Shown here one piece after another: positions 1 through 15,909 of a stretch of 24,077 bases of DNA. Origin of the DNA: a virus. Taxonomy: Duplodnaviria; Caudoviricetes. The DNA lies in the IMG/VR virus record IMGVR_UViG_3300044617_000445, positions 1 to 24,077 of that record; one strand, given 5' to 3'. Below the pieces are notes generated by a model. The model had not been told where the DNA came from, searched no databases, and saw only the letters and a list, made by a program, of their open reading frames with translations. Every line of letters starts with the position of its first letter. Position 1 is the first letter of the stretch. The position numbers were made by a program, and so were the translations under genes.

Positions 1-373
1 GGGCTTCGTGGCCGATCTGAATTTGCGAGAGCAGCATGTCGGCAACGGCAACCTCGACATCGAGGAAGCGAGCCAAGTCGCGCTGCGTGGCATCAGGAAG
101 GATTTCCTCAAGGCCGTATTCCGTGGCGGCAAATGTGTCGGAGACAAACTTGCGGGAAACGCGGGGATAGGCGCTGCCTGCGGCGATCTTGGTGGCATCG
201 TCGTTCAATGCTTCGGACTGGCCGAGATTGATCTTGAGATATTCGCCAGAGCGAACATCAGCCACATAGATGGGCATGACTTCCGCGCCGATGAAAAGGT
301 TCTGGCGGTTGCTGCGGCCTTCGTAAACGGCCTGGGCAATGTCGCCTCGGATGGTGGTGGTTGTTAGTGCCAT
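1..373 (-). CDS. Major capsid protein #1 (lambda gpE-like, HK97 fold), N-terminal part; runs off the window
   Basis: Not in the ORF track. Hand translation from ATG at 373 gives MALTTTTIRGDIAQAVYEGRSNRQNLFIGAEVMPIYVADVRSGEYLKINLGQSEALNDDATKIAAGSAYPRVSRKFVSDTFAATEYGLEEILPD... with no stop to the window edge. AAGGA lies upstream. The 'FIGAEVMP..V...SGEY' and 'EYGLEE.LPD' segments resemble gpE-like capsids, and the gene follows protease/scaffold and decoration genes. Confidence 0.8.
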   Translation of the reverse strand, partial: MALTTTTIRGDIAQAVYEGRSNRQNLFIGAEVMPIYVADVRSGEYLKINLGQSEALNDDATKIAAGSAYPRVSRKFVSDTFAATEYGLEEILPDATQRDLARFLDVEVAVADMLLSQIQIGHEA

Positions 374-392
374 AATGGTGGTTCCTTAAAAA

Positions 393-746
393 TTAGAGCT
401 TGCAGGCGTATTCGATCACATCGCCGGTTGCGCCAGAATTGATCGCAGTTCCGAGGGTGATTCCGCTGGTGAGAAGGGTTCCAACAACCACGCCGCCAGT
501 CGTTGCGAAAACATTGAGTCCCGCAGTCACGGGGCCGGGAGAGACCAAGCCGAACTGAGTTGGGCTGAAAAGTTTCACGCTGCCGATGCCGGTAGCAGAA
601 ACATCTTCTTGAACCACGCCGACGGCTTCGCTGGCGGTGACCAATGCGGCGGCTGCGTTATCGCCGGAGACTCGCACCAGCGTGTTTGCGGAGATTGCAG
701 TCGCGAACGAGAAGCTCCGGTAGGTATTGTCGATTTGTGTAGCCAT
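393..746 (-). CDS. Head decoration / capsid cement protein (DUF2190-like)
   Basis: 117 aa, small, G/A/V/T-rich beta protein ('AVGVVQED', 'TLGTAINSGATGDVIE') between scaffold and capsid genes. Confidence 0.7.
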   Translation of the reverse strand: MATQIDNTYRSFSFATAISANTLVRVSGDNAAAALVTASEAVGVVQEDVSATGIGSVKLFSPTQFGLVSPGPVTAGLNVFATTGGVVVGTLLTSGITLGTAINSGATGDVIEYACKL

Positions 747-752
747 GAGATT

Positions 753-1178
753 TTAGAGATTGGTGAGTTGATTGGAATCGCGGAGGGCGATGTATTCGGC
801 GGGGTGATTGCTCATCGCGAATTTGATCGCGGCGGTCTTGCTGCCGAGTTCGGCAGTTTTGTTTTCGATGAGAGCCTTCAGATCAAACTTGGCGGCGGGC
901 TTCTCTTCGGCGGTGGCGCTGCCCTTCATGGGAGCGGAGCCGAAATTTGCGATGATCGTATCCATCTTTGCCTCAAGCTTTGAAATAGGAGAAGCGGATT
1001 GGCAGTTGCACATTTCATCCTTTTTCTCTTCAGCCATTTTCTCTTCGGGCATCTCTTCCATTTTGTTCTTGTAGTCGCCGAAAGCGGTTTCAAGAGCGGA
1101 GAGGCGGGAAAGGATGTCAGAGATATCGATCTCGTCTTCTTTGACGATCTCTTCAGCTTGGGTTTTTTCGTCTTCCAT
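753..1178 (-). CDS. Putative nested in-frame scaffolding protein (internal start Met151)
   Basis: In-frame ATG at 1178 (MEDEKTQAEE...) at the boundary of the acidic domain, preceded by TTGACA-N14, mirroring the main start. Analogous to lambda Nu3 inside gene C. Confidence 0.55.
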   Translation of the reverse strand: MEDEKTQAEEIVKEDEIDISDILSRLSALETAFGDYKNKMEEMPEEKMAEEKKDEMCNCQSASPISKLEAKMDTIIANFGSAPMKGSATAEEKPAAKFDLKALIENKTAELGSKTAAIKFAMSNHPAEYIALRDSNQLTNL

Positions 1179-1628
1179 ATTGGTGAGATTTTTGTCAACT
1201 GCCTTTGCCTCGAAACTGAAAAGGCCGGTAGGATTGGCGGCAGGAGTTTGAACGAGATCAGCGCTGTAAAGCTCTTCGCAGCTTGCAAAGCGCTTGCCGT
1301 CGATCTCGCGCACAGGGCCAGAGAAAGCGATTGAGATGCCGAAGGTGTCGGGGAGCTTCTCGGCGATTTCGAGCACATATTCCCTGCGCTCGGCGTTCTG
1401 GAGAAGGTTTAGATCGGCGACGAGTTTATCGCCTATGATGCGAAAATTGTCGCAGAATCCAACAATGTCTTTGATCCCTGCGCCGTGATCGAGATTGACC
1501 TTTACGCCGCCAGCGTAGGACTCCGCACATGCTTTCACTTCCTGCAATGTTATGCGATCCACGAAAAGGCCGTGGCCTTTGGCTTCGCCTACGCTGATCA
1601 CGCTCACGCCTTCGATGATGTCGCTCAT
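753..1628 (-). CDS. Prohead protease-scaffold fusion protein
   Basis: 291 aa. N-terminal globular domain (GEAKGHG, LDHG, FGISIAF, SADLVQTPAANPTGLF) resembles phage maturation proteases; acidic helical C-terminal half is scaffold-like; directly upstream of decoration and capsid genes. Confidence 0.7.
   Translation of the reverse strand: MSDIIEGVSVISVGEAKGHGLFVDRITLQEVKACAESYAGGVKVNLDHGAGIKDIVGFCDNFRIIGDKLVADLNLLQNAERREYVLEIAEKLPDTFGISIAFSGPVREIDGKRFASCEELYSADLVQTPAANPTGLFSFEAKAVDKNLTNMEDEKTQAEEIVKEDEIDISDILSRLSALETAFGDYKNKMEEMPEEKMAEEKKDEMCNCQSASPISKLEAKMDTIIANFGSAPMKGSATAEEKPAAKFDLKALIENKTAELGSKTAAIKFAMSNHPAEYIALRDSNQLTNL
1193..1198 (-). promoter_or_regulatory. TTGACA motif 14 nt upstream of the internal scaffold ATG
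   Basis: Minus strand reads TTGACA aaaatctcaccaat ATG. Confidence 0.5.
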
Positions 1629-1641
1629 GCGAAGGCGCGAG

Positions 1642-1647
1642 TGTCAA
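1642..1647 (-). promoter_or_regulatory. TTGACA motif 13 nt upstream of the protease ATG
   Basis: Minus strand reads TTGACA ctcgcgccttcgc ATG; no Shine-Dalgarno or canonical -10 box in between. Confidence 0.55.
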
Positions 1648-1656
1648 AAGAAAAGG

Positions 1657-1801
1657 GCCGATGGAGTCCAGGTCGCTCAGCCGATTGATGCGCTTCCTTG
1701 TATTCTTTCAGACAAGTAAGGGATTCAGTCGCCCATACGGACGCTTGCACCCGCCTCAAACTTACGACTTAGTGGCGCACCGCCCTCGATGCTCCATCGG
1801 C
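1657..1801 (-). ncRNA. Candidate structured non-coding RNA element
   Basis: Perfect 10-bp inverted repeat GCCGATGGAG (1657-1666) / CTCCATCGGC (1792-1801) closes the intergenic region, with internal helices, followed on the minus strand by CCTTTTCTTTT. Confidence 0.45.
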
Positions 1802-1805
1802 AAGA

Positions 1806-2291
1806 TCAATCTTTGTATCGATTAACGATATCTTCAAGGTAAAATTCCTCAAGCGCAGCCTGCGCGAGCATCAGAATCTCAAGCTCGTTCTCTTCGCGGC
1901 AACCGACGATCTCAAACGAAGTCGATATTTCTGGCTTGATGCGGTTAGCCGAGATGTTGGTCGCCATTCCCTGCACAGGAACCTGCGCGGAAATGGAGAG
2001 CGCCACCGGCCCGATTGCCGATGACGCTCTCGCACCCACAACACCGACCGCACTAGAAATTTGAACCTGCGCTTCGCCGACTTTGAGCTTGCCAACAACG
2101 CCGCGCTTGATCTCGACAACTACGCGCTGGCGCTCGCGATATAGGCCGCCCGGTAGATCGCGCGGCGCGACGATTGGCGGTGGCGGCGGGCCGCTTGGGA
2201 TTTGAAGCAAGCCCTGCGTGCCGATCGAGAGTGGCGTTGGGCTTGGCAGCAAGCCCTGCGTGGCGATGAGCAAGCTGGTCAAGATCGTCAT
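1806..2291 (-). CDS. Hypothetical phage protein, probably virion-associated
   Basis: 161 aa; TAATG stop/start overlap with the upstream gene; duplicated I(A/G)TQGLL motif and a Pro-rich linker. Confidence 0.65.
   Translation of the reverse strand: MTILTSLLIATQGLLPSPTPLSIGTQGLLQIPSGPPPPPIVAPRDLPGGLYRERQRVVVEIKRGVVGKLKVGEAQVQISSAVGVVGARASSAIGPVALSISAQVPVQGMATNISANRIKPEISTSFEIVGCREENELEILMLAQAALEEFYLEDIVNRYKD
2206..2262. repeat. 15-bp direct repeat, 42-nt period (encodes TQGLL twice)
   Basis: agcaagccctgcgtg at 2206-2220 and 2248-2262. Confidence 0.8.
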
Positions 2292-3976
2292 TAGTCGCGA
2301 GAGACGGTGGTCGTTGTTGCGCCGTCGCCGCCGATCGTTTGCGAGATCGCACCAGCGGTGCGGCTCGTTGGAGTGACGGTGAGCGTGTCTCCGGTCTTCA
2401 GCCCGTGGATGAGATACATTTCATCAATCTCCGCGCCAACAGTTCCGGTTGGGTGATCTCCCCGCGTAACAAGAGGATCGCGCACCGTAGTGAGTAAATA
2501 CTCGTCGCCTGCCGTTGGCACAACGCACCAGTTAGAATCTACGGTGGCGGTGTCGGTGCCGGTATCAAAATCAAGAATGAAGCGCGCCTGCTTGTCGTCG
2601 GTGTCTTGGTTTGTGACGACGATTGTTTGCCCGACGCACAAGGTTCCGATTGGCTCAAGCGTGATTGTATTCGTAGTCGCCGAGACTGTCTGTCCATCTG
2701 CGATGATACGCTCGTCGGCAATTTGGCGAAGCCTCTTCCCCGCCGATCTGTTGACATTGTGCGTTGCGCCGGTAAGAACTTCATCCCACACGGCATCTGC
2801 GATGCCTGCGGTGGTAGCTGTGGAGCGGCTTGAGATTGTGGCGTCGATGTTTGTTTTTAGGAGCGTGCCGATCGTGCTGCTTGTTGTGATGGCGGTGAGT
2901 AAATGATCCCACACACTCGCAGGCGTGAGTGCAGCAGTTCCGGTAGTCGCATCCACGGGGACGCCGAAACCAACCGAGGCGGCGGCTGGGACTTTGCAGC
3001 TTCCGGTGAGAGCGCCGCTGGCGTAGCTCACCCCGTCGCGGACATCGGTGGCGGCTGGCATTTGGCCTTGGGTGGCGTCCACCAGAGTTTTTGCGGAGCC
3101 TGCATCGACATAATTGAAGACGGCGACATTGCTGGAGAGCTTTTTGAGGCGAATGCCTGTTCCGCTGGTGGGTGACATTCCGAATGTGCCGTATTCGAGT
3201 TCTTCGATTTCGATGACGCCGAGGCCCGCGTTGCTTGCCCCGACCGCCGCCCCTGTTCCTGCTCCAGAATTTCCGGGGCCATACGGGCTGCCTTTAGCGC
3301 GGGTGAGATATAAATTCCCAGTAGATACATTGTTGGCTCCAGAAGCCGAAGTTGCAGAACCACCTGTGCAAATGCCAACAACCGTAACATTTCCCGTTGA
3401 ATTATTCATAAGGCCAAAATTTGCGGCGGTTCCTCCTTGGCAGTTTCCAATTACGGTAATTGATCCAGTAGATGTATTTTGAGCGCCATGAGCATTTTGA
3501 AAACTTCCGCCCGTGCAATTTCCCGTGATTGTCACAGTTCCAGTAGAATTATTTGAAACAGCACTGCACCCCAATATCGCACCTCCTTGACCTCCGCTGC
3601 CGCCCGTGCAGTTTCCTGTGATATTTAGAGAACCGGTGTTAATATTTACAGCTGCCACATTGGCGACTGCGTTGATGCCTCCAGTGCAATTCCCAACAAT
3701 ATATCCAACCGCTGGCGAGGCCGCCGTAAATTGCAGGCAGTTGCGCGTAGTCGTGGCGGATTTGCTTGAAACATTGGCGGTGAGTGTGACGCCATCATTT
3801 AGCGTGAAAATACCGGTGCCTGCGTTGGAGACTTCGTCGCAAGTGGCATTTGCGGTGATGGTGATGGTATGGCCGTTGCTGGCGCGGGCTTCGTCTCCGA
3901 CGCCGGGAACGACGCCGCCTGTCCATGTCGCGCCTGCGTTGAAATTGCCGCTGGCTGCGGAGGTGATGAGGGCCAT
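2291..3976 (-). CDS. Fibre/adhesin-like virion protein with beta-solenoid repeats
   Basis: 561 aa, G/T/A/N-rich. N-terminal 'TWTGGVVP..GD' motif, five G(N/I)C(T/Q)GG repeats, 'P..TDVRDGVSY' segment and two 'VWD' repeats. Confidence 0.7.
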   Translation of the reverse strand: MALITSAASGNFNAGATWTGGVVPGVGDEARASNGHTITITANATCDEVSNAGTGIFTLNDGVTLTANVSSKSATTTRNCLQFTAASPAVGYIVGNCTGGINAVANVAAVNINTGSLNITGNCTGGSGGQGGAILGCSAVSNNSTGTVTITGNCTGGSFQNAHGAQNTSTGSITVIGNCQGGTAANFGLMNNSTGNVTVVGICTGGSATSASGANNVSTGNLYLTRAKGSPYGPGNSGAGTGAAVGASNAGLGVIEIEELEYGTFGMSPTSGTGIRLKKLSSNVAVFNYVDAGSAKTLVDATQGQMPAATDVRDGVSYASGALTGSCKVPAAASVGFGVPVDATTGTAALTPASVWDHLLTAITTSSTIGTLLKTNIDATISSRSTATTAGIADAVWDEVLTGATHNVNRSAGKRLRQIADERIIADGQTVSATTNTITLEPIGTLCVGQTIVVTNQDTDDKQARFILDFDTGTDTATVDSNWCVVPTAGDEYLLTTVRDPLVTRGDHPTGTVGAEIDEMYLIHGLKTGDTLTVTPTSRTAGAISQTIGGDGATTTTVSRD

Positions 3977-3979
3977 GGC

Positions 3980-4282
3980 TTAGAGTCCTTTCGAGATCAA
4001 AAGGGCTTGGAGTGCGGTCTGGATCGCAGCGACGGCGGCTTGCTCGGCGGGGTCTGTGACTTCGGAGAGGTGGCCGCGAAGCAGGCCGATGGCTGCGGAG
4101 TCGGCAGTTTCGACCGAGGCGGGAGCTTCGTCGGCGGCGGGGGCGAGGCGCGTGGGGACGAGGCGCATGGCGATGCTGGCGTCTGGCGATCCGTCGGCTT
4201 TGTAGCTGCCGGTGATGGCGAGGTTGAGGCTGAAGCGGTCGAAGGTTTTGCCGTCGATGGTGATGGGATTGGATGCGGTCAT
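3980..4282 (-). CDS. Hypothetical phage protein (100 aa)
   Basis: Start reassigned to ATG at 4282 (MTASNPITIDGKTFDRF...), 2 nt after the upstream stop; GC-rich codon usage. Confidence 0.7.
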   Translation of the reverse strand: MTASNPITIDGKTFDRFSLNLAITGSYKADGSPDASIAMRLVPTRLAPAADEAPASVETADSAAIGLLRGHLSEVTDPAEQAAVAAIQTALQALLISKGL

Positions 4283-4284
4283 AG

Positions 4285-4659
4285 TTATGTATAAGTTAGA
4301 GTTTCTCGATCCGACCAAGCACCGATTACGCTGCCTTCGGATACGACTTCTCCGGAAGAATTTAATTCTATCCTGTAAATTGTCCAGTCATTTACTTCGT
4401 CAGGGTCTCCCTCTTCTGGCTGGTCTACCCAAGCCAACCTGCCGATGTATGCGTTCAGCCCGTCCGAACTGGTAGCGGACTTGAACTGGTAAAGCGAAGG
4501 ATCGTTAGGCCCGTTAAGCCGAAACACGGTTCCTTCTGTGTCTTTGCTGTAGAGCCTGCGATCTGTAAGATTAATCGCAAGCTCTCCAACAGAAAGGTCT
4601 AGTGCCGCAGGGATACGACCTGCGACACTAGAGCGTTTTAATTTGATCGTTGTAGGCAC
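4285..4659 (-). CDS. Fibre-associated protein with Mtd_N/hyaluronidase-N-like domain
   Basis: GTG start; 'TIKLKRSSVAGRIP...GELAINLTDRRLYSK' is the N-terminal module common in phage fibre proteins. Confidence 0.7.
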   Translation of the reverse strand: MPTTIKLKRSSVAGRIPAALDLSVGELAINLTDRRLYSKDTEGTVFRLNGPNDPSLYQFKSATSSDGLNAYIGRLAWVDQPEEGDPDEVNDWTIYRIELNSSGEVVSEGSVIGAWSDRETLTYT

Positions 4660-4668
4660 GAACCTTTA

Positions 4669-5595
4669 TTAGAAGGTTCCGCCGTCAACTTCTCCCTCAA
4701 GAGCGGAGATGCGGGTTTCGTGATCCGCAACATCAGTCTCAAGGGTATCGGCACGACCTTCAAGGGCGGTGATATCGCTTTCGGCAGTATCAACACGCCC
4801 GCTCAAGGTGCTAGCGGCAGACTCGATGGCGTCGATATCGCTCTCAGCGGTATCAAGGCGTCCTTCGGCGGCGTCAACATCACTCTCAAGCGTGGTGGCA
4901 CGGCCTTCGAGGGCGTCGATATCACCTTCGGCGGTTGTCACGCGGCCTTCCAAGGTGGAGGCAGATGACTCGATAGCAGAGATGTCTCCCTCAACGGTGT
5001 CGAGGCGACCTTCAACCGCAGTCACATCGCTCTGAAGGGTGGACACATCCCCCTCAAGGGTAGTGGCGCGTCCTTCGACGGCGGTGGCGCGGGACTCAAG
5101 CGAGTCGATATCCCCTTCAGCCGTGGTGACACGACCGCTCAGGGTAGTAGCTGCAGACTCAATTGCTGTGATGTCGCCTTCAATTGCTGAAAGGCTGTTC
5201 GCCACAGTCGAGGCGAAGTTAGCGTCGTCGTTAAGAGCAGCAGCAAGTTCGTTCAGGGTGTTGAGGGCAGCAGGAGCAGCGTCAATGACATTGCTGATAG
5301 CTGTATCGACATAGCCTTTGTTGGCGGCGTCGGTCGAAGCAACAGGAGTTGCAACGCTCTCGATAACCACGGAACCAGCGTCAATACCACCGGAGAAGGT
5401 TTTCTTACCGGAGATGGTCTGAGCCGAGGCTTTGTCAACGAATGTGCCTTTACCAGCGATAGCTTTGATGTCTGTGCCATTGCCGATGTAGAGTGTCTCG
5501 TCTACAAAGTTATGTGCCATCTCACCAGCGAGCAAAGAAGCGGGCGCTCCTGCATTGCCAGTTAGGCGGCGTTTGATGCGAATATTAGTAGCCAT
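4669..5595 (-). CDS. Trimeric coiled-coil fibre protein
   Basis: N-terminal 'IRIKRR...GEMAHNFVDETLYIG' module, 'DAANKGYVD' and 'APAALNTLNELAAALNDDANFASTV' tail-fibre motifs, long heptad array, C-terminal DGGTF. Confidence 0.85.
   Translation of the reverse strand: MATNIRIKRRLTGNAGAPASLLAGEMAHNFVDETLYIGNGTDIKAIAGKGTFVDKASAQTISGKKTFSGGIDAGSVVIESVATPVASTDAANKGYVDTAISNVIDAAPAALNTLNELAAALNDDANFASTVANSLSAIEGDITAIESAATTLSGRVTTAEGDIDSLESRATAVEGRATTLEGDVSTLQSDVTAVEGRLDTVEGDISAIESSASTLEGRVTTAEGDIDALEGRATTLESDVDAAEGRLDTAESDIDAIESAASTLSGRVDTAESDITALEGRADTLETDVADHETRISALEGEVDGGTF
4690..5184 (-). repeat. Heptad (21-nt) coding tandem repeat array with higher-order repeats
   Basis: About 23 uninterrupted heptads, e.g. 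LEGRVTT/AEGDIDA/LEGRATT; the block IES(A/S)A(T/S)TL(S/E)GRV occurs three times. Confidence 0.85.
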
Positions 5596-5623
5596 ATTAT
5601 TTTGTCTTTCTTGTTTTTGTTTG

Positions 5624-5652
5624 ACTCAACGAATCATCTGACTCGTTTAAGT
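5624..5652 (-). other. Intergenic hairpin without U-tract
   Basis: Minus strand ACUU-A-AACGAGUC agau GAUUCGUU-GAGU, followed by an A-rich leader before the fibre ATG. Confidence 0.5.
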
Positions 5653-5661
5653 TGTGATCTT

Positions 5662-5895
5662 TTAGAATTCCCCGCCGTCGTTGTCAACGCGCAAAGGAAT
5701 ATAATTATTTTGTGCTGCATTCCAAAGGTAGGGAAGACCTTCCTCGTCCTCAAAATAAATGCGACCGCGCTCTCCCGTAGCAGGAAAGTCGCTTTTGCTT
5801 TGGTATGTGACAACATCGTCAAAGTCTGTAGGGATGCTGTCTGCGACTAGCTTACCCTTCTCTTCGACCACTCGTCCGTTGTAGATTACTTTCAT
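5662..5895 (-). CDS. Small fibre-associated protein ending in DGGEF
   Basis: 77 aa; 'DDVVTYQSKSDFPATGERGRIY....YLWN' is a common phage fibre module; C-terminal DGGEF. Confidence 0.75.
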   Translation of the reverse strand: MKVIYNGRVVEEKGKLVADSIPTDFDDVVTYQSKSDFPATGERGRIYFEDEEGLPYLWNAAQNNYIPLRVDNDGGEF

Positions 5896-5896
5896 A

Positions 5897-6673
5897 TTAA
5901 GGCGCGTCTGCGTTTACGATGTTGTTATCTCCGTCTAGGCAGAAGCGGATTATTCCAGAGCCGGATGGGGTTGAGTATGTAGCGCCAGCGCCAACAAGCC
6001 TGCAATAAAGTATTTGACCTGAGAAATAATCTACTGAACCAAATCCTCCAGAACCAGAAACGCAAGATACATAAACACCAGATGCAATGTCACCAAAGCC
6101 ATCTAATCCAGCGGCACATCCATAAAACTTTCCAGCACATGACCCTCCGCTATTTGCAAAACTTAAATTACCACCCACACAATTCTCAAAAACTTGCAAT
6201 GGTTTGTTGCCAGTAATTTTAAACTGCTGTGTCCCTACAGAAATACCGCTAACCCTTACATCGTTTGCCGTTACATTCAGCGTGTTATTGGAAACAATAA
6301 CAGCGGGGCTTTGAAATTGTGCGCCTAATCCTACGAGATCAACATACTCTGCGTCTATCTCTAGTTCAGAGGAGAGAGGGTATGTGCCGGGGACGATAAA
6401 GAGCGTGATGCGATTGGTTGCTGAAGGGCTTTTAGTCTTAGCCTCTGCATACTTTGTTGCAAGATTGTCTCCCTGCTGGGCTAGGACATATCCATCCCCG
6501 CTTGATTGCAACGCAGAGGAGCTTGTAACCGCGCTTGCGTAGGTATTCTGCGCGATCTTGAACAGCAAGTTGTGCTGCCCGTCACCTACCTTTGGCTGGG
6601 ACTCGCCTGTATTAGCGGCGATCTTCGCAAGTAAGGCGTTCTGGGAATCGTTGAATTGAGGGGATTGTGCCAT
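5897..6673 (-). CDS. Putative head fibre/spike with beta-helix-like domain
   Basis: 258 aa; duplicated N-terminal motif D(S/G)QxxLLxKIAxNT; 'FIVPGTY' and 'VDLVG' typical of pectin-lyase-like beta-helix entry; Cys/Gly repeats. Confidence 0.6.
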   Translation of the reverse strand: MAQSPQFNDSQNALLAKIAANTGESQPKVGDGQHNLLFKIAQNTYASAVTSSSALQSSGDGYVLAQQGDNLATKYAEAKTKSPSATNRITLFIVPGTYPLSSELEIDAEYVDLVGLGAQFQSPAVIVSNNTLNVTANDVRVSGISVGTQQFKITGNKPLQVFENCVGGNLSFANSGGSCAGKFYGCAAGLDGFGDIASGVYVSCVSGSGGFGSVDYFSGQILYCRLVGAGATYSTPSGSGIIRFCLDGDNNIVNADAP

Positions 6674-6674
6674 G

Positions 6675-6989
6675 TTAGGCTAGTCCGGCACGCTGACGGA
6701 GACGATCTTGAAAGGGAACCTCTTCTTCCATCTCTGGCTCTTCCATCTCATCCTCGTATCCTTCAGGCATTTCTTCTTCCTCTGACATAGCAGAGAGCGG
6801 GTATCCGTCTACGGAAACCAACTTGAATTCACCGTCTCCATCGTAACGAACTTTAGCGAGAATCTCTTTCTCCTCGCCTTCTTTCATTCCAGAGTAATCA
6901 AACCCTTCTGGGGCCATGAACTCAACCTCGTCTCCTTCGGGCTTGCCGCCCATACCGATAACAACCGCCATTCCGCCTTTGTCTTTCAT
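6675..6989 (-). CDS. Small acidic hypothetical protein
   Basis: 104 aa, Glu/Met-rich, directly downstream of capsid gene #2, AAT-ATG start. Confidence 0.75.
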   Translation of the reverse strand: MKDKGGMAVVIGMGGKPEGDEVEFMAPEGFDYSGMKEGEEKEILAKVRYDGDGEFKLVSVDGYPLSAMSEEEEMPEGYEDEMEEPEMEEEVPFQDRLRQRAGLA

Positions 6990-7011
6990 ATTGTATTTCT
7001 TTCTAGCTTAA

Positions 7012-7040
7012 GAGCGGAGAGGGATAGAACCTCCCCGCTC
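7012..7040 (-). terminator. Strong hairpin after capsid gene #2 (weak terminator or stabilising stem)
   Basis: Minus strand GAGCGGGGAGG-ttctatc-CCTCTCCGCTC (11 bp, one G-U), followed only by TTAAG. Confidence 0.55.
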
Positions 7041-7054
7041 AAATTAGTTAGCTC

Positions 7055-8242
7055 TTAGGAGCAGGACTGATACACGGTCGCAGGATTGCAACGCAGATGC
7101 ATGATCGCGTAACCCCACTCGGTGCGTTTAGGCTGGGAACCCTGCATGAACAGAGCGTAGAAGTAGCCAGTCAACCCAAGGATGTTGTTTGCGTTATCCT
7201 TGTTGTTGATCCAGACATACTCACCGCGATAGTTCACGGGGTCGAACTTCAGACCGCTGCCGGGGCTGGTGATCACCTGAGCAACACGCGATGTAAACAC
7301 ATGCGGGTTGTAGATGAAGCTAACCTCGTAAGGAGCGGTGCGGTAAGCCGGATTCACGACAGCTTTGTTGCCAGTAGTAGCAGGGCTGTTGGTGAAGAAC
7401 GGCACACGGACAAACTCTCCGTTGACGAAGTTGTAGCGAGGAGCCTGACGATCCACGATGTGGACGAAGCCAGAGTAGCTGAACGCTGCACCGAAGGGCT
7501 TGATAAGCTCGTCAACCTGCGAGGAGAAGCGCAAATCCTGACGGATGTCAGCATTCTGTTTCTTCAGGAAGTTGCTCGATTCAGGGGAGCAGATGAGCGC
7601 ATACTGAGGCTCACCGTCAACCATGGCGTAGTGACCTTCGGCAGAGTCGCGGGACAGATCAAGATAGAACTGATCCAGCATACCTTGATCCAAAGCGAAC
7701 TGAGGAGTGACGGCAGGGAAGTTCTGGTTAGAACCGCTGCTGGACATGCTGAGGGTATCAGCAACATCGAGAACAACTTTGTTGCCAACGAGACGAGAGA
7801 ACTCATCACGATAGCGGTTGCTCCAGAACCATTGGCTGTTCTCCTTGAGAACTTTGACTTCGCCAGCAAGCTGCTCTTCAGCCTTCCAAGCGGTGCGAAG
7901 ATCATTCACACAAAAGCCGGGACTGCGGATAGCTGCTTGTTGGAGGTTATAACTAGAAAGGGTGCGAGCAAAGTCAACCGTTTGAGGGGTTGGGTTGCAA
8001 GAGTTGCCAGTTCCGTCATTCGTTCCGACATCTTCCCAAGCGGAGTTACTGACATTGGGGACAGTAGAACGCTCTTGGATGAGGGTTTGAATGGTTTCAC
8101 CCATCCCAGCAGGGAAGGTGTCCTGTTTAATGAGGCGGTTCCAGACATCGGTTCCGATCATTTTTGCGCTGATCATTTCGCCAATACGGCCAGCTTCGGC
8201 TTGAAGCTGTGTATCGACATCAGCAAGATTGTATTGTGACAT
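7055..8242 (-). CDS. Major capsid protein #2 (podovirus-type)
   Basis: 395 aa; portal-scaffold-capsid gene order; 'QDTFPAGMGETIQTL' resembles HK97-fold coat N-terminal/E-loop segments; strong codon bias; flanked by hairpins. Confidence 0.8.
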   Translation of the reverse strand: MSQYNLADVDTQLQAEAGRIGEMISAKMIGTDVWNRLIKQDTFPAGMGETIQTLIQERSTVPNVSNSAWEDVGTNDGTGNSCNPTPQTVDFARTLSSYNLQQAAIRSPGFCVNDLRTAWKAEEQLAGEVKVLKENSQWFWSNRYRDEFSRLVGNKVVLDVADTLSMSSSGSNQNFPAVTPQFALDQGMLDQFYLDLSRDSAEGHYAMVDGEPQYALICSPESSNFLKKQNADIRQDLRFSSQVDELIKPFGAAFSYSGFVHIVDRQAPRYNFVNGEFVRVPFFTNSPATTGNKAVVNPAYRTAPYEVSFIYNPHVFTSRVAQVITSPGSGLKFDPVNYRGEYVWINNKDNANNILGLTGYFYALFMQGSQPKRTEWGYAIMHLRCNPATVYQSCS

Positions 8243-8269
8243 ATTTTAGATTTTCTAAATAGATTGTTA

Positions 8270-8433
8270 ATTGCAAGTCGCCATTACCGCATCTGCGGAA
8301 ACAGCATTTCTCTTATCTCCTCTGAGCCACTTGAGAAGTCCTTTCGGTGTTTTTAAGCTCACAATTATTTTACTATGATTGCGGAACACAGCCTCCGTGA
8401 TCTCTTTTTCAACAGGTTGATCAACCCTGCAAT
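8270..8433 (-). ncRNA. Candidate structured RNA in the 5' leader of capsid gene #2
   Basis: Closing stem AUUGCAGG/CUUGCAAU encloses several helices with G-U pairs that only form on the minus strand, and a CC-GAAA-GG tetraloop. Confidence 0.5.
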
Positions 8434-8437
8434 GTGA

Positions 8438-8466
8438 TCGTTAAAGTATTATCTGAAGTTATGCAA
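8438..8466 (-). promoter_or_regulatory. Possible sigma70-like promoter for capsid gene #2
   Basis: TTGCAT-N17-TAACGA immediately after the scaffold terminator and just before the structured leader; the -10 match is weak. Confidence 0.3.
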
Positions 8467-8474
8467 GTAAAAAT

Positions 8475-8518
8475 AACAAAAAAAGAGCGGAAGGTTTTAA
8501 TCCTCCCGCCCTTTTGTT
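8475..8518 (-). terminator. Rho-independent terminator after the scaffold gene
   Basis: Minus strand AGGGCGGGAGG-attaaaa-CCTTCCGCTCT followed by TTTTTTGTT. Confidence 0.8.
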
Positions 8519-8536
8519 AAAGTAAAAACTTTTACC

Positions 8537-9706
8537 TTACGACCTGATTCGGGAGACGAGTCCCTTAACAAAGTCGTCTGTATCTACTTTCGTATAATCC
8601 ACAGGCTTGTTTGCATCCGCAGGGGAACGAGGAGCAACCCCGCCAGCAGCAGGTGCAGCACCTCCGCGAATCTTCACATTCTCGTTGCGGACTGTTTCTA
8701 ATTCACTCTGGAGTGAAGTAATGCGATCAACCAAGTCTGGAAGGATGGCAGCACCAGCAATGCCGTAGACCTTCAAGTCTTCCGGCCATTTATCGTATCC
8801 CATGATCTCTTCTTGCAACTTCGCAATGTCTGGACGCTGGTCTTCAGGCAATAGATTAAACACCTTTTCGCTCAAACGAGGGATAACGGTGTTAACCGCA
8901 GTCTCACGCTGTGCAAAGTATTGTTTCATCTGTTGCTCTTGCTCGGCCTTTTCTCGCTCCGCAGATGCCTCGTATGCAGCTTTGGAATTAGATTCGATCT
9001 CTCCCTTGCGCTTCTGAATCGCAAGCAGATTGTCGGCAAGCTGGTAAACTTTTGTCTTATCTCGATCCGACCAGTCGGCAAGAAGTTGCTCTAATGCTTT
9101 AGGGTTGCCATTCACATCCGCCTCAAGAGCGTCCATGATGTCTCCGCCGTCAACGCTGTTACGACCTGCATAGAAGTCCACATCGTCAAAGAGTTGGTTA
9201 AGTGGTTCCGTTACGAACTTCTTATACTCTTTGCTTGCTTGAACCCGCGAAATGTAAAGCTCTCCGTCCAACGCTTCACGCTCTTGCTCAATCTCGGAGA
9301 TTTGCTCTTTAAGAGCTTGAACCTCTTGGGATGCTGTTTCAAACTCTTCTCCGCGCCTCTTTAATTCGGCAAGTTCTTTCTGCGCAAGCTTCAATTCTTT
9401 CTCGGCTTGTTTCAACTCTTTCCAACGAACTTTTGCGCTGTCGCCTTCTGGTTGAACCTCCTCTGCTTCTGTATTGGATTCCACTTTTTGCTTTTCAACT
9501 TCTGGAGTGGATTCCACTTTAGGCTGTTCCTCCTTGTTGATTGCGTGTGACGGAATCGGTGCGCTAGGATTTGGAGGACGCTCTGTTAAGTTCGTCTCCG
9601 TGTTGAGATCGTTGCGGGCAATGGAATCCAATGCTCCGCGAAGATTGTCGATTGCTATATTGGGCTGAACTGGAGCCTCAGGTGCTGGCGTTGCTTGGTC
9701 GGACAT
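8537..9706 (-). CDS. Capsid scaffolding protein
   Basis: 389 aa, acidic, disordered N-terminus, long coiled coils, short C-terminal helix; lies between portal and capsid; AAAGGAAAT upstream of ATG. Confidence 0.7.
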   Translation of the reverse strand: MSDQATPAPEAPVQPNIAIDNLRGALDSIARNDLNTETNLTERPPNPSAPIPSHAINKEEQPKVESTPEVEKQKVESNTEAEEVQPEGDSAKVRWKELKQAEKELKLAQKELAELKRRGEEFETASQEVQALKEQISEIEQEREALDGELYISRVQASKEYKKFVTEPLNQLFDDVDFYAGRNSVDGGDIMDALEADVNGNPKALEQLLADWSDRDKTKVYQLADNLLAIQKRKGEIESNSKAAYEASAEREKAEQEQQMKQYFAQRETAVNTVIPRLSEKVFNLLPEDQRPDIAKLQEEIMGYDKWPEDLKVYGIAGAAILPDLVDRITSLQSELETVRNENVKIRGGAAPAAGGVAPRSPADANKPVDYTKVDTDDFVKGLVSRIRS

Positions 9707-9721
9707 ATTTCCTTTCTTGGT

Positions 9722-9850
9722 TTATTTCTTGATGCCAGCACGGTGACGCTCACCCCAAGACTTGCCTTTTGTGGCAACGCTGGGCTTGCTGGACTTTGCT
9801 TGTTTGGCGGGCATTTTAGCGCCCATTGCTTTAGTGTTTGCTGTTTTCAT
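9722..9850 (-). CDS. Small Lys-rich basic peptide (42 aa)
   Basis: Start reassigned to ATG at 9850 (MKTANTKAMGAKMPAKQAKSSKPSVATKGKSWGERHRAGIKK); fills the gap between neighbours; AAT-ATG context. Confidence 0.6.
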   Translation of the reverse strand: MKTANTKAMGAKMPAKQAKSSKPSVATKGKSWGERHRAGIKK

Positions 9851-9854
9851 ATTT

Positions 9855-10223
9855 TTATTCTTGTTGGGTGTTAAGTTGTGAGAGCCTTTCAGCCTCGTTG
9901 ATTTCATCGATGGTGTATAAACCAGTCGAGAAAAGTTTCTTCCGTGCTTGCTGGATATATTCTTGATCCAGCTTGTTGTCTTTAAGCATTGGAGGATTCG
10001 CAAGCGATTGAAGCTTTGCAAAGAATTCATTTGCTCCGATAGACTTTCCAGCTTCAAGAGAAAGAACATCCTTAAGATTCTCTCCATTCTTTAGCACGGG
10101 TTCTTTTGGAGAGCATTCTTGTCGAACAATAAACAATGCCTCTTTGATTGTTGGATTATCTAAAAGGCTGGAAAGTATATCCAGTTTTTCAGAGTTCATC
10201 TGAAATAGTTGTCTTGGTGTCAT
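9855..10223 (-). CDS. Hypothetical protein downstream of portal
   Basis: 122 aa, helical; starts 3 nt after the portal stop, a position usually held by a small gene in P22/N4-like head modules. Confidence 0.75.
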   Translation of the reverse strand: MTPRQLFQMNSEKLDILSSLLDNPTIKEALFIVRQECSPKEPVLKNGENLKDVLSLEAGKSIGANEFFAKLQSLANPPMLKDNKLDQEYIQQARKKLFSTGLYTIDEINEAERLSQLNTQQE

Positions 10224-10226
10224 GTG

Positions 10227-12548
10227 TTAAGCCCTGATGCCTTCGCGTTGAATCTTACTAGCTGTTTCTGCGTCACGCAATGCCATTTTTTGAGCATTAT
10301 CCTGCTGACGCATAATCATCTTTTGTTGATGTTGTTGGAAGTCCATCTCCATCTTAGCCTGTCGTTCTGCACGCATAGCTTCAATCTTTGCAAGAATCTC
10401 TGGAGAAACTTGTGGGCCTTGCTGTTCAGCACCCGCTCCAATTGTTTGTTGCATGGCAGCTTCCTCTTGCATGACTTGCTGTTCGCCCATCAACTTCTGC
10501 ACCTTGAGTGTGCCGTTGTGAAGAATCTCGTCAGCGTTCTGCAATGCTTTACGGAAGAATGCAGACTGCTCACGCATCATTGGGTCTTGACCCAACCTAG
10601 CTACATGCTCAGACATGTGTTGATTGAGGTTGTTAAGTCCCGGCAACATTTCTGCAACTGACATTGGATCAACCGCCAACGCTTCTTGAGCTTGACCAAC
10701 AAGAGGCTCAAGCGCGGTAAGGTGGACTTTAGCGTGGACAAGATCGTTCTGTCCGTCGATGACTTGAATCTGACCGCCCTGCAAGAGTTGGTTGTTCTCA
10801 ACCTGAGCAAGTGATGCATCCCAAGTCGGTGTCTCGGTCTCACCCGGAGGCACAGCGTAGCGTGCTGCATTCTCGTAGCCAGCAGTCTCGGAAACAATAT
10901 CCCAAACAAGGTTCTGCTTTCCAGAGTCTGGAAGGCTTCCAAAGATGCCCATCAGTCGATCAAAGGCAACCATGCGGGCTGCTTCTGATCCGGCTCCTAC
11001 GGGCTTTGTAATGCGAAGGCGGTCTATATCTAGTTCGTAGAATGCTTGGAGGTAACGATCCTTCGCTCCAACACCTTCAGAGCCGCGCTGCAAAAGACGC
11101 TTGCGAAGATCGGCGATATACTTACCGCCGGGTTCGCGGGAATCGTAATCCCTGCGCTTCATTCGGCGGATCATCTCACGGATAAGTGACTCCCACGGAT
11201 CAAAGAACAAGTTGAGTGCAGAGACAGACATCTTTGCAATGTTGCTGAGTTCTGCGCGAACCTGAGTCGCAGACTTCTCTACGCTTGTATTAACCAAGCT
11301 TTCCGTATTGTAAGAGGCTGTTCGTTCGCGGAACAACTGTGTGAAAGCACTAACAATCGGTAGTGTTCCGTTAGAAACATTGGGAACTATAGTATCCTTA
11401 ATGACCTCAATACCGGGAGAAAGCAAATTATAGATTCCGTTCGGAATAAACTGCATTTCTTGCAATGCCGTCTCGTCTTTAGGTTGGAATGTAGGCGCAG
11501 AACCGAAGGATGCAATCTCCAGCAAAGAACAATATGCGCGATTCAATGCGCCGTTGATTGCAAAGACATCGTAGCCTTGTCCACGAACTCCGTGATAATA
11601 GCCGTTAGTCCCAACTCCGTAGGTAAAGATTGTATAAGCTTCATAGCTATTATTGAAACGACCCACTTTCTTGAATAAAAAATCTTGGACTCCATTGTCA
11701 TCGCAAATCATCATGTGCGAAACCTTTCCGTCAAATTCAGTTACCCAAAGATGGACAACACGAATAGATTGTTGGTTCGCTGCTTGGGTTGTGAAATAAA
11801 GATCGTTGTTGCGAAGCTCAACCTCCAACTTCTCCCAATCATACTGACGGAACTGGTAGTGGTTGTTGTTATTGTTTACCGAAGAGATGATAGCCTTACG
11901 GCAAGCCTCAACATTAAAGCCGTTGATTTGTGCGATCTCCTCGTCCTTGATGAGTTGGTAAAGTTGTGTTGGGCTGTAGAAGCGCAAGCAGGCTGCACAG
12001 TCAATGTTCTCCTGACCAATCTCCGTCTTACGAGGAAGCTTGAAATCAGACATATCTGTAGCCTTCCAACGCCAATCCCATTCGTCGTTGAATAGGGCGA
12101 TACCTACTCCGTGCTTGATGAAAGAGTTACAGAGACGCAGATAGGTTGGGAAGAAGTTGCGCCAAGAGCGGACTGCTGCCGTGACTTCTTGCGCGACAAC
12201 ATTCTCAAGCTCGTCACGCTCAACCATCGGCCCATACATTGTCGGACACGAAAAGAATGTTTGCGGAGCATTGATGATGTCTGTGTATCCAGCCATCGCT
12301 GTATCAAGGACTTGCTTTGCAAACCCCCAAGAAACATTAACTCGGTAGCCTTGCCCTGCGTTGATGAGTGCGCGCTCGTCGTAAGGCCGTTCGTTATCGT
12401 ATGCCGCGTCAATCTTAGAGCGGTCGTAAGCAGATACGGCATCTGCTCGTCGTAGTGTCTCCCAAACCTCATAGGCAGATTTTGCATCCTTGATGCGGCT
12501 TACCGGAGGCTTGCCGCTTTCTGAAATTGTTTGTAGCACATCACTCAT
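10227..12548 (-). CDS. Portal protein (podovirus-type with C-terminal Gln-rich coiled-coil barrel)
   Basis: 773 aa; size, position, 'SATQVRAEL' (cf. portal TATEV motif), 'YYHGVRGQG' and a long Q/E/M-rich C-terminal helix as in P22-like portals. Confidence 0.75.
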   Translation of the reverse strand: MSDVLQTISESGKPPVSRIKDAKSAYEVWETLRRADAVSAYDRSKIDAAYDNERPYDERALINAGQGYRVNVSWGFAKQVLDTAMAGYTDIINAPQTFFSCPTMYGPMVERDELENVVAQEVTAAVRSWRNFFPTYLRLCNSFIKHGVGIALFNDEWDWRWKATDMSDFKLPRKTEIGQENIDCAACLRFYSPTQLYQLIKDEEIAQINGFNVEACRKAIISSVNNNNNHYQFRQYDWEKLEVELRNNDLYFTTQAANQQSIRVVHLWVTEFDGKVSHMMICDDNGVQDFLFKKVGRFNNSYEAYTIFTYGVGTNGYYHGVRGQGYDVFAINGALNRAYCSLLEIASFGSAPTFQPKDETALQEMQFIPNGIYNLLSPGIEVIKDTIVPNVSNGTLPIVSAFTQLFRERTASYNTESLVNTSVEKSATQVRAELSNIAKMSVSALNLFFDPWESLIREMIRRMKRRDYDSREPGGKYIADLRKRLLQRGSEGVGAKDRYLQAFYELDIDRLRITKPVGAGSEAARMVAFDRLMGIFGSLPDSGKQNLVWDIVSETAGYENAARYAVPPGETETPTWDASLAQVENNQLLQGGQIQVIDGQNDLVHAKVHLTALEPLVGQAQEALAVDPMSVAEMLPGLNNLNQHMSEHVARLGQDPMMREQSAFFRKALQNADEILHNGTLKVQKLMGEQQVMQEEAAMQQTIGAGAEQQGPQVSPEILAKIEAMRAERQAKMEMDFQQHQQKMIMRQQDNAQKMALRDAETASKIQREGIRA

Positions 12549-13479
12549 CGCTTAAGTCTTTCTTTTTATCCCGAAACAACTGAAAGAAAGAGGGGGACTT
12601 CTTCGTAGCCTTTTGAGTCTCTTCTTTCTCCTCAAACTCTTCCGCTGCTTCTTCGGCGTCCTCAACGGACATCTGTTTAACTATCTTCATATCGTTTTGT
12701 TTATTGTCCAACAATAGGTTGATAAGACTTCCATCTTTGCATCCATGGACAAGAACAGCGTTCTCGTTGATCGGATTATTAAAATGAATATCCCAAGCTA
12801 AGTTGGCAATAGAATCACATACTATCTTTCCGTTTTCCATGCGATAGTTTTTTGTGCGCCAATTGTTTTGTATAAGATCAGAGTCAATTAAGGCCGGAAC
12901 ACAATACCATTGGTGGACCGATGCCCAATGACGAGTTGTTGTTGTGAGCGATGTAAGTGTAGGGGCTTTGCAAATCTCTGGTGGGTAAACTCCAACGGGA
13001 GACATGCGGCTTCCAGCAATGGATTCTGGAAGCAGTTCTCCGTTCTTTCCTTCGTAATTTCGTTCACGACTTCCGAGGAATTGTCGGGCTGCTCGTTTCT
13101 CGTAGACGGCATCTGTTGTATCTTTGTGGTATTCATAAGCGATCTTATCTAGCCAGCCATCTTTAATCGGCGTTGCATCAAGCTCAAACCAAAAGAACGG
13201 CTTATTGTTACCGGATGCGTTGAGGAAGTAACAAGTGTTCTGCCAGAAATGATTGCAAGCCATCGGCCATCCAAAGTTGTTGTCTGGAATAATGTGAGCC
13301 AATGAAGACGAGAACTTCGGTTTCAATCGCGCAGCAACATCGGAAGCGTCTGACTCAACTTCATGTGAGCCAACAACAACAAGATCGTGATCAGTTGTGA
13401 ATGAGAATTTATCAAAAGCTGCGTAAAGATTGGGAATGAGTTCACGGTCTGATTTGGATATAGGTATTACAAGTTTCAT
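12541..13479 (-). CDS. Putative GT-A-fold glycosyltransferase-like protein
   Basis: 312 aa; N-terminal 'LVIPIS' strand, 'FFWFELDATP..GWLD' DxD-like motif, late 'VLVHGCK'; 8-nt overlap with the portal start. Confidence 0.5.
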   Translation of the reverse strand: MKLVIPISKSDRELIPNLYAAFDKFSFTTDHDLVVVGSHEVESDASDVAARLKPKFSSSLAHIIPDNNFGWPMACNHFWQNTCYFLNASGNNKPFFWFELDATPIKDGWLDKIAYEYHKDTTDAVYEKRAARQFLGSRERNYEGKNGELLPESIAGSRMSPVGVYPPEICKAPTLTSLTTTTRHWASVHQWYCVPALIDSDLIQNNWRTKNYRMENGKIVCDSIANLAWDIHFNNPINENAVLVHGCKDGSLINLLLDNKQNDMKIVKQMSVEDAEEAAEEFEEKEETQKATKKSPSFFQLFRDKKKDLSDE

Positions 13480-13480
13480 A

Positions 13481-13837
13481 CTAGAAAAGCATAGAGAATG
13501 TTGCTGTGAATGTGATCGGCCTGCTTGGCTTCCGATCAGTTACGAACTCTTGGCAGTTTACTTTGCGCCAAACACGGCGAGGCATAAAGAAGCCATACTC
13601 GTAAATACCGCGAGAAATAATGATAATTTTAAAGCCAGCCCTTTCCAGTTTGAACTGCGATCCTTCCAATGCACGACGAATAGCGAGAGCCAGAGGGCTG
13701 TTAACGGGATCGTGTCGAGTGCCATTGTCATAATCTTCGGGTAGAACTGTTACCTCGAAAGTATAATCAGGACGCTGGGAGTCAACAAACTTTTCAGCTT
13801 GTGTCTTATCTAAACCCAATGCTTGAAGGAGCGTCAT
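13481..13837 (-). CDS. Hypothetical protein
   Basis: 118 aa; ATGA overlap upstream and 1-nt gap downstream. Confidence 0.7.
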   Translation of the reverse strand: MTLLQALGLDKTQAEKFVDSQRPDYTFEVTVLPEDYDNGTRHDPVNSPLALAIRRALEGSQFKLERAGFKIIIISRGIYEYGFFMPRRVWRKVNCQEFVTDRKPSRPITFTATFSMLF

Positions 13838-14010
13838 TGTTTTTCTAGTTTGCTTTTAACCTTTGCAAGTTGCTCGTCAAACCAATCGGTGACGGTCTTT
13901 CCTTGAAACGCGAGGTAGGCTTTAAAGAGTCGCCATTCGCTTTTACGACATTTAGTGATAACCCGATGTGTTCGGGGTTCCTTCCATTCTTCGCTGAATT
14001 CGTGTGCCAT
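13834..14010 (-). CDS. Small putative DNA-binding protein (ribbon-helix-helix-like), 58 aa
   Basis: Start reassigned to ATG at 14010. 'HRVITKC' strand then 'KSEWRLFKAYLAFQGKTVTDWFDEQL' fits the RHH pattern (helix-G-x-T-helix). Confidence 0.55.
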   Translation of the reverse strand: MAHEFSEEWKEPRTHRVITKCRKSEWRLFKAYLAFQGKTVTDWFDEQLAKVKSKLEKQ

Positions 14011-14091
14011 GCGGGGTATAAATATACACAAGGACATAAATGTTGCAACAATTATGTTGAAAAAAGAATGCTGTTCTTTCAACATGACCGC
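14011..14091. promoter_or_regulatory. Divergent promoter/operator region
   Basis: 81-nt AT-rich gap between divergent ATGs; perfect palindrome TGTTGCAACA (14041-14050); minus-strand TTGCAA-N16-TATATT; bulged inverted repeat ATGTTG(AAA)AAAGAA / TTCTTTCAACAT. Confidence 0.65.
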
Positions 14092-15909
14092 ATGACAGTA
14101 AATGAAGGGAACTCCGCTCCTATCTTCGGAGAGCCGATAAAGGGCAAGAAACACAAGTATGGATTTAACTGGCGTCTGCAAACTCACGATCTTGCTATTG
14201 AACTAGCAATGTTCCGAGAAAAGATTACTCGACGCATTCCGTCTAATGTTGGTGGGGTTGAGATTGCTGACCACTTCAAGACGATAGCTAAAGCCCTTTG
14301 GCCTGAGAACGACAAGAAAGCTGGTGCTAACTTTATATGGCATCCTTGGGCAGACCGAATGTTGGATGCTGCCTGCAAGTATGACTACCTTGCTATTGCT
14401 GGCTCCGGAGGTTTCGGCAAGTCGGAAATGTATGCTATCTGGGCGATTGTTAATTACTTAGCCGATCCAGAGAACACGATTGTCCTAGCTACATCTACAA
14501 CTATCAAAGCATCCAAGCAGCGCATCTGGGGTAAGATTGTAAAGTATTGGCAAATCTGCGAACAGCTTGGACTGCCGGGTAAGTTAATCGACTCGCTCAA
14601 TACGATCCGCTATGTGGATGGAGCAGGCAAGGCGATCAAGGGCGATCTTGCTGGAATCACGCTTATCCCCGGCGAGAAGAAGAAAGAGAAAGATGCTACG
14701 GGCAAGATGCAGGGTATCCACCAAAAGAATGTTATCTTTGTTGCGGATGAGTTGTCAGAGCTTTCAGAGGCTATCACGGAAGTTGCTTTCTACAACTTGA
14801 GCAAGGGTTGCGAACGCTTTCAGTTCATCGGCATCTCCAACCCCGCCTCGTATGTCGATGCGTTCGGTAAGTTCGCCAAGCCCAAGGAAGGGTGGGAAAC
14901 AATCTCCGTGGAGGATGACGAGTGGGAAACGGAGCGCGGAATCTGTCTGCACTTTGACACGCTAAAGAACCCAAATATGATGCGCGGGAAGAAGGTTTAT
15001 CCGTGGATGGATGGGCCGGAAGACTTGGAGAAGGTTCCCGCCTCAGAACGCAATACAGCCTCGTATTGGCGCATGTATCGTGGTTTTTGGTGTCCCGCTG
15101 GTGTTAGCGATCAAATCTACAGCGAGGTTGAAATCGTCAACGCTAGGGCTACAGACAAGGCTATCTGGCTGGACAACGAGCTTGTTAGGGTGGCATTTCT
15201 TGATCCGTCTTTCACGAACGGAGGAGACAGAGCTATCCTTTACTTCGGAACTGTGGGCAAACTTGCAGAGCCTTACGGATACAAGGGGCTGCAATACGAC
15301 GAGTTCTTGAAGTTCGCAGAAGATGTAACTGACGAGTCGGCAACTAGGACGGAACAGATTGTTCGCTGGTTTAGAGATGAATGCGTAAAGCGTGGAGTGC
15401 AACCCAGACACGCTGGATACGACAAGTCCGGTGCTGGTGCGCCTCTAGGTGATGTTATCTCGATTGCTTGGAGCAAGGATGTCTACGGACTCCAGTTTGG
15501 CGGCAAGGCTTCGGATAAGCCCGTCTCTGCTTACGACCAGACTCCGGCCTACGAGCGGTATGTAAACTCTGTGTCGGAGATTTGGTATAGCCTTAAGGAG
15601 TTCATGCGAGCAGGACAGATCAAGGGCATCAGCAATGACTTCATGCAGGAGATGTGCCATCGCAAACTAGATAAAGGCGGAGTGAAGGATTTAAACCTTC
15701 GTATAAAGGTTATGCCGAAGATTGAAATGAAGCTCCGCTATGGCATGTCTCCCGACATTGCGGACGCAGGCATGGGGCTTCTAGCACTCTGTAGAGAGCG
15801 TTTAAGTCTAGATAGCTCAACCGCAACAAAAGCTCTCAACCCTAACAACAAGAGCGAAAGCAAGGGCTGGAAGAATGCGTTCAGCAAGTTCCGCTCGGTT
15901 TACGCTTAA
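14092..15909 (+). CDS. terL: Terminase large subunit
   Basis: Walker A GSGGFGKS, Walker B VIFVADE, coupling motif ISNP, RNase H-like nuclease FLDPS ... YDKSG ... SPDIADA. Start reassigned to ATG at 14092 to avoid overlap with the divergent gene. Confidence 0.92.
   Translation: MTVNEGNSAPIFGEPIKGKKHKYGFNWRLQTHDLAIELAMFREKITRRIPSNVGGVEIADHFKTIAKALWPENDKKAGANFIWHPWADRMLDAACKYDYLAIAGSGGFGKSEMYAIWAIVNYLADPENTIVLATSTTIKASKQRIWGKIVKYWQICEQLGLPGKLIDSLNTIRYVDGAGKAIKGDLAGITLIPGEKKKEKDATGKMQGIHQKNVIFVADELSELSEAITEVAFYNLSKGCERFQFIGISNPASYVDAFGKFAKPKEGWETISVEDDEWETERGICLHFDTLKNPNMMRGKKVYPWMDGPEDLEKVPASERNTASYWRMYRGFWCPAGVSDQIYSEVEIVNARATDKAIWLDNELVRVAFLDPSFTNGGDRAILYFGTVGKLAEPYGYKGLQYDEFLKFAEDVTDESATRTEQIVRWFRDECVKRGVQPRHAGYDKSGAGAPLGDVISIAWSKDVYGLQFGGKASDKPVSAYDQTPAYERYVNSVSEIWYSLKEFMRAGQIKGISNDFMQEMCHRKLDKGGVKDLNLRIKVMPKIEMKLRYGMSPDIADAGMGLLALCRERLSLDSSTATKALNPNNKSESKGWKNAFSKFRSVYA

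Follow-up and report, generated by a model that had tools for sequence, protein, structure and literature searches.

Does the virus record IMGVR_UViG_3300044617_000445 (Duplodnaviria; Caudoviricetes) come from a single tailed phage that encodes two unrelated heads? The entire linear record, 24,077 bases long, is the window analyzed here, and all coordinates are window positions. A sequence-only reading had described two head modules in tandem on one strand, a podovirus-type set and a lambda-like set, with one run of fibre genes between them. Both sets, as well as the fibre-like genes that separate them, were indeed found on the minus strand where they had been placed. We observed, however, that the two halves of the window belong to separate phage types, each of which is found on its own in complete single-head genomes. 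We consider it probable, at about 0.85, that the contig joins two different freshwater phages in a shared fibre cassette through an assembly error, and that it is not a two-capsid virus. Below, L numbers denote fetched loci, G numbers denote records and X numbers denote sequencing runs. The features on which the argument depends are as follows (aa, amino acids; GC3, the guanine-plus-cytosine (GC) fraction at third codon positions).

2–373, minus strand: first 124 codons of the lambda-like phage's major capsid gene, truncated at the contig end (PHROG 1005; 319 aa in relatives)
393–746, minus strand: gene for a 117-aa protein, a candidate decoration protein by position only
753–1628, minus strand: prohead protease/scaffold gene of the lambda-like phage (PHROG 7015, E 3e-5; 59 related loci)
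2291–3976, minus strand: gene for a 561-aa protein rich in Gly, Asn and Thr, 97% identical to L063, with a putative fibre role
2907–4286, unstranded: shared cassette made of a 100-aa gene and the N-terminal part of the fibre, with the genome switch inside and a core at 3002–3799
3980–4282, minus strand: the 100-aa gene at the start of the cassette (GC3 0.79 compared to 0.46 in the gene before it)
4276–4286, unstranded: cassette edge, from which podovirus-type relatives align upward and lambda-like relatives downward; it holds a stop codon and the ATG of the next gene
4285–6989, minus strand: genes of 124, 308, 77, 258 and 104 aa, podovirus-type fibre and accessory genes in an order kept in L001–L009
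7055–8242, minus strand: major capsid gene of the podovirus-type phage, 395 aa (HK97 fold by model, nearest N4-like)
10227–12548, minus strand: portal gene of the podovirus-type phage, 773 aa (Atlas structure match, SU10-portal family)

The two capsids are unrelated. A profile-profile comparison of both capsid families gave a probability of 1.2%, in line with the lack of visible similarity reported from the sequence. Searches with the first capsid returned 49 loci and searches with the protease returned 59. At the DNA level the podovirus-type loci aligned from 4276–4310 upward, while the protease loci aligned from position 1 to at most 4289; small cross-matches, in L014 (4207–4290) and L022 (3054–3226), were both inside the cassette. 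Bases ~4283–24077 match podovirus-type genomes of ~68–70 kilobases (kb), and bases 1 to ~2906 match phages of ~36–39 kb with their own lambda-type terminase and portal. The GC content of the window is 55.4% below 2907 compared to 48.3% above 4282, and the relatives, at 53.9–56.1% and 47.7–49.4%, agree with the respective halves. A GC dip near 5500–6500 was considered as the junction and rejected because the alignments of the relatives run through it. We found no long repeat within the window that could explain the join.

Both heads were found together on none of the 337 loci (first head on 56, second on 105), a set that includes overlapping stretches of one contig plus distant, unrelated and uninformative matches. 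The second head set was also absent from all 31 loci that hold the first capsid and 7 kb downstream of it. Likewise, none of ten near-complete genomes held both: the second capsid was missing from all five genomes of 67.8–69.0 kb and the first from all five of 35.7–38.7 kb, with positive controls matched. As had been noted, the window has no portal upstream of the second set. For the 39 protease loci with 7 kb of upstream sequence, a lambda-family portal was present 2.5–3.9 kb away in 37, and both exceptions come from one record, G014.

A complete 36.6-kb phage with terminal repeats matches the second set at 93% identity; the set is therefore not a free module. The sequence-only reading had asked whether the lambda side has its own tail, terminase and portal; in the relatives we found a gpA-type terminase, a portal and a tape measure. 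With each half a separate complete phage type, and the second set normally preceded by its own portal, the dual-capsid and passenger-element proposals were not supported. The proposal of an assembly chimera joined in a shared fibre block was supported, and we place the join at ~2907–4286.

The cassette occurs in both types. About the first 355 residues of the 561-aa protein make up the shared module, followed by a C-terminal part of lambda-like type; among its homologs the N-terminal ~350 residues are kept and the remainder is swapped. The 100-aa gene and the fibre N-terminus occur together in 81 loci, 58 of them lambda-like, three with a podovirus-type head and 20 of other or unassigned type. 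Most of the close podovirus-type relatives carry another fibre gene in place of the cassette. The exact 561-aa fibre was found on the window contig only, and it has no cultured match.

Two loci matter most here. The lambda-like L063, with its portal ~400 bases upstream of the cassette, is 97–100% identical to the window over 3100–3700, with exact runs of 296, 122 and 112 bases in 3240–3778. L137, a record that begins inside the fibre gene and whose entire 28 kb are colinear with podovirus-type genomes, is 96% identical over 2907–3285 with a 124-base exact run; at 2907 it diverges into the usual podovirus-type gene run. Five of its seven downstream proteins have an exact or at least 90% identical copy on a 70,177-base contig, and the other two on a 70,398-base contig. 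The exact first capsid is present on 15 contigs, of which the longest also has 70,177 bases; from the equal size we infer that it is the same contig.

The same 100-aa gene and fibre N-terminus were also seen in further phage types (L121, L123, L139–L144, L155 and L157), each with its own fibre C-terminus; one of these, L140, has a tape-measure-like gene.

The depth of sequencing runs provided a view across the block. Twenty runs, mostly of lake water, hold part of window 1–10000; all were available as Logan contigs, which cannot phase across the block. Run X1, a lake run with 82% of the words, is possibly the source sample or comes from the same lake. Its depths, taken from 16 of 44 pieces, are contig depths summed over all organisms and not copy numbers. 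They were 11.6 (2786–2986), 24.4 (3002–3799), 16 and 10 on the two sides of a bubble (3770–3899), 23.1 (3870–4005) and 12.5 (4248–4696), with 12.1–17.3 on the podovirus-arm pieces. Two genomes with one block in common, collapsed there by the assembly, would give such a single-double-single course. In X1 the depth inside the block is close to the sum of the arms. Run X5, from another study, was weakly alike, at 6.2 over 2921–3778 compared to 3.6–3.7 and 2.6–4.6 on the arms.

The X1 piece 4248–4696 bridges the cassette edge without differences, so the link between the podovirus-type gene and the cassette exists as DNA. A join through the ~11-base overlap at 4276–4286 alone was rejected for the same reason. 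Among the Logan contigs no piece spans from arm to arm, and such contigs could not do so in either case. Run X2 holds the podovirus arm with almost no cover at 3270–3736 and was not used, since a sequence missing from such contigs proves nothing.

These observations suggest the following course of events. The podovirus-type lineage would recently have acquired the cassette through genuine recombination at the boundary between two genes, presumably from a donor pool of higher GC, since GC3 jumps from 0.46 to 0.79 there. Both phages would then have been present in one sample at similar depth. With a shared block of ~0.8–1.3 kb, which exceeds short-read length, the assembler may have followed the podovirus-type genome into the block and come out along the lambda-like one. 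In an intact genome the podovirus arm would be expected to carry on into the L137-type gene run, and the second head would have a terminase and portal of its own upstream. The exchange of the cassette itself is real but ordinary.

Several observations weigh against an assembly error. Run X3 showed no clear doubling (5.2–6.1 in the block compared to 3.2–7.5 on the podovirus arm), and in X1 the doubled depth could come from a third phage or from a second lambda-like strain. An alternative piece at 4006–4028, with depth 24.4, and a separate loose end at 4282 indicate that more genomes share the region, and an L137-type exit near 2907 was not among the four X1 loose ends listed. L137 covers only 2907–3285 of the cassette; it shares with L063 only 11 words of 55 bases and none at 77 bases or longer, the strains being different from those of the sample. 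All reading frames are unbroken through the block, as they would also be after a real crossover, and the join of the same two types in record G014 fits either cause.

One rival reading is a real hybrid DNA molecule, the result of a single crossover in the shared cassette during co-infection of one host by both phages. Intact frames across the block are compatible with it, and the two types do trade DNA: apart from the cassette and an RNA-like element described below, they have in common a 252-aa gene at ~65% DNA identity (L137:4726–5481; G003:35307–36035; G010:24265–24994), which also points to a common gene pool. Record G014, which unites the same two types, would then be a second case. We nevertheless regard such a hybrid as unlikely, since only an abundant molecule could have prevailed in the assembly, while the X1 depth fits two separate genomes, the exact fibre is confined to this contig and searches of host genomes and metagenome-assembled genomes (MAGs) gave no shared host. 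The fibre had no match in a host genome; the second capsid was matched at 50% identity on three MAG contigs from three different phyla, which allows no host call. Such a product, its second head stranded without its portal, would probably leave no descendants or exist only as a transient joint molecule. The broader proposition, that lambda-like and podovirus-type phages share a host and cross over often enough to leave whole-arm hybrids at assemblable abundance, with G014 as another example, is similarly doubtful.

A stable genome with two head modules, or a podovirus-type genome with a passenger head module, is far less probable still. It would account for two modules that share a strand, without a gap and with their reading frames open. 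However, it is opposed by the 93% match of the second set to a complete phage and by the absence of any second record with both heads among the loci and near-complete genomes searched, a count from which very near records may have been left out. The same reservation gives little weight to the pattern searches: the exact pattern across the cassette edge had no matches in IMG/VR or the JGI metagenomes, and a pattern inside the cassette had none either. With the 124-aa gene as bait, no near-identical podovirus contig was found, the best match being 77%.

A two-capsid phage, if true, would be very surprising; the evidence says that a database artefact is most likely. Were the hybrid real, phage mosaicism would have been captured at an intermediate stage. 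For an assembly error, the consequences are practical: the window record, and probably G014, would be unsuitable as single genomes, and shared fibre cassettes would be places where assemblies of lake phages may switch from one genome to another. Two uncultured, unrelated phage types have also exchanged genes recently, as the cassette shows, which hints at a common host.

Record G014 (34,919 bases; L054:1–5105 and 5155–18980) consists of a podovirus-type arm joined to a lambda-like genome at the start of a fibre gene. The podovirus-type arm is 92–97% identical to G004, and the lambda-like part is 98% identical to G010. G014 carries neither the lambda portal nor the first capsid, and CheckV gives it 95% despite the missing lambda-type portal. 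It is probably another chimera.

Tail-fibre modules are exchanged between unrelated tailed phages, as in the mosaicism of lambda Stf and T4 gp37. The present cassette is similar in that a small gene and a fibre N-terminus recur across phage types with different C-termini. The known exchanges, however, swap a module and keep one head, and the fibre function here is putative. Judging by titles and abstract openings, no paper found in a literature search deals with a tailed phage that has two unrelated head modules. In comparison with a chimeric contig from short-read de Bruijn assembly, the window has the same two single-copy arms around a near-identical block at approximately the summed depth in X1. 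PMC10914622 describes regions shared between genomes as the standard multi-path case where assemblers generally break, and states that chimeric joins arise in assembly and must be removed by curation. The window contig differs in running through such a region.

The first head was characterized further. The AlphaFold model of the 395-aa capsid had a mean predicted local distance difference test (pLDDT) score of 79.7. In Foldseek its best match was the N4 capsid (E 2e-11); the HK97 head was matched at E 8e-7, and there were 276 matches at E ≤ 0.001, so the model matches solved HK97-fold capsids. Atlas assigned the protein to capsid families at 0.97. There was no PHROG or Pfam match, a PDB sequence search was blank, and no cultured relative was present among 50,697 phage records. 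The portal matched the SU10 portal family in Atlas with a template modelling (TM) score of 0.60 and reached the PF23899 threshold. The likeness to N4-like and SU10-like podovirus heads therefore lies in the capsid model, nearest the N4 capsid, and in the portal, nearest the SU10 family; the difference is that identities are only 12–14%. The label "podovirus-type" is putative and refers to the genes, with a portal that tests as SU10/P22-type. Two more genes of this arm are as follows.

8537–9706, minus strand: scaffold-like coiled-coil gene, kept between portal and capsid in relatives, with a putative role by position
14161–15909, plus strand: likely large terminase gene of the podovirus-type phage, with Walker A/B-like motifs read from the sequence

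The terminase candidate had no match to a named family, and its PDB sequence search was blank. It is opposite in strand to all its neighbors, as in most relatives that reach that far; in a distant relative, L135, the terminase lies on the same strand as its neighbors.

The second head had been called lambda gpE in style. The term fits the layout of the module but does not extend to the capsid's protein family. In relatives of this set the genes follow the order terminase, adaptor, portal, fibre genes, protease, capsid and tape measure. In L051 and L063 a gpA-type terminase and a lambda-family portal (PF05136) are upstream of the head; neither is in the window itself. The relatives thus resemble the lambda-like head module in the order of these genes, from the gpA-type terminase through the adaptor and the PF05136 portal to the tape measure; they differ from it in the PHROG 1005 capsid and in the fibre genes between portal and protease.

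The capsid fragment at 2–373 is 99% identical to L051 and matched the PHROG 1005 major head at E 8e-10 (2e-31 for the full 319-aa relative L051). Nearest to this capsid are 3bjq (E 0.0018) and the capsid of phage phiSHP3 (26%). No Pfam capsid model matched L051 at E ≤ 1 or any of 51 family members at E ≤ 0.05. A model of the full-length relative was too poor to judge the fold by (pLDDT 44) and matched no solved structure at E ≤ 0.001, the best being 3bjq at 0.011; lambda capsid chains had E 0.7–0.9 with the same model.

For the preceding genes, the protease label was upheld by PHROG 7015, with a blank PDB sequence search, while the decoration and scaffold labels come from position and no family match names them. 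The 117-aa protein had no match to a decoration family in PHROGs, Pfam, NCBIfam or PDB; exact copies are on 25 contigs, the longest of 36,752 bases.

In the fibre region of the podovirus arm, the 124- and 308-aa genes match PHROG tail-fibre families. The coiled-coil 308-aa fibre gene contains seven imperfect 44-nucleotide (nt) repeats at 4718–5076, with a spacing of 42 or 63 bases. One X5 contig skips 147 bases within these repeats, which suggests variation in repeat number.

Next to the terminase, on the minus strand at 15906–20679, are three methyltransferase genes, a GT47 (exostosin) glycosyltransferase gene and a weak GT9 match. This run was found in only some podovirus-type relatives, and by its gene content it may modify glycans of the virion or of the host surface.

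Upstream of the protease gene are two further features of the lambda-like arm.

1647–1805, minus strand: non-coding element of ~160 nt with a covarying predicted RNA structure, between the 161-aa gene and the protease gene
1806–2291, minus strand: gene for a 161-aa protein of the lambda-like phage, which in lambda-like loci immediately precedes the protease gene

Copies of the element are at L334:16771–16946, L339:13973–14142 and 10981–11149, G004:52504–52672 and G012:11005–11172. Its distribution is patchy, with five strong matches in 97 sources and presence in two of five genomes, and it extends over both phage types. There was no match in Rfam (Rfam 15), and a single copy folds no better than shuffled sequences (z −1.5). 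In the predicted structure a long stem closes the element, several stems lie inside it, and invariant bases may form a 5-base-pair pseudoknot. Over 19 hand-picked copies, 95.8% of the cells pair and 16 of the 40 pairs change on both sides; the copies are related, and the structure was derived from the same 19. This predicted RNA is the only lead to something possibly of a new kind, and it may be of interest in its own right.

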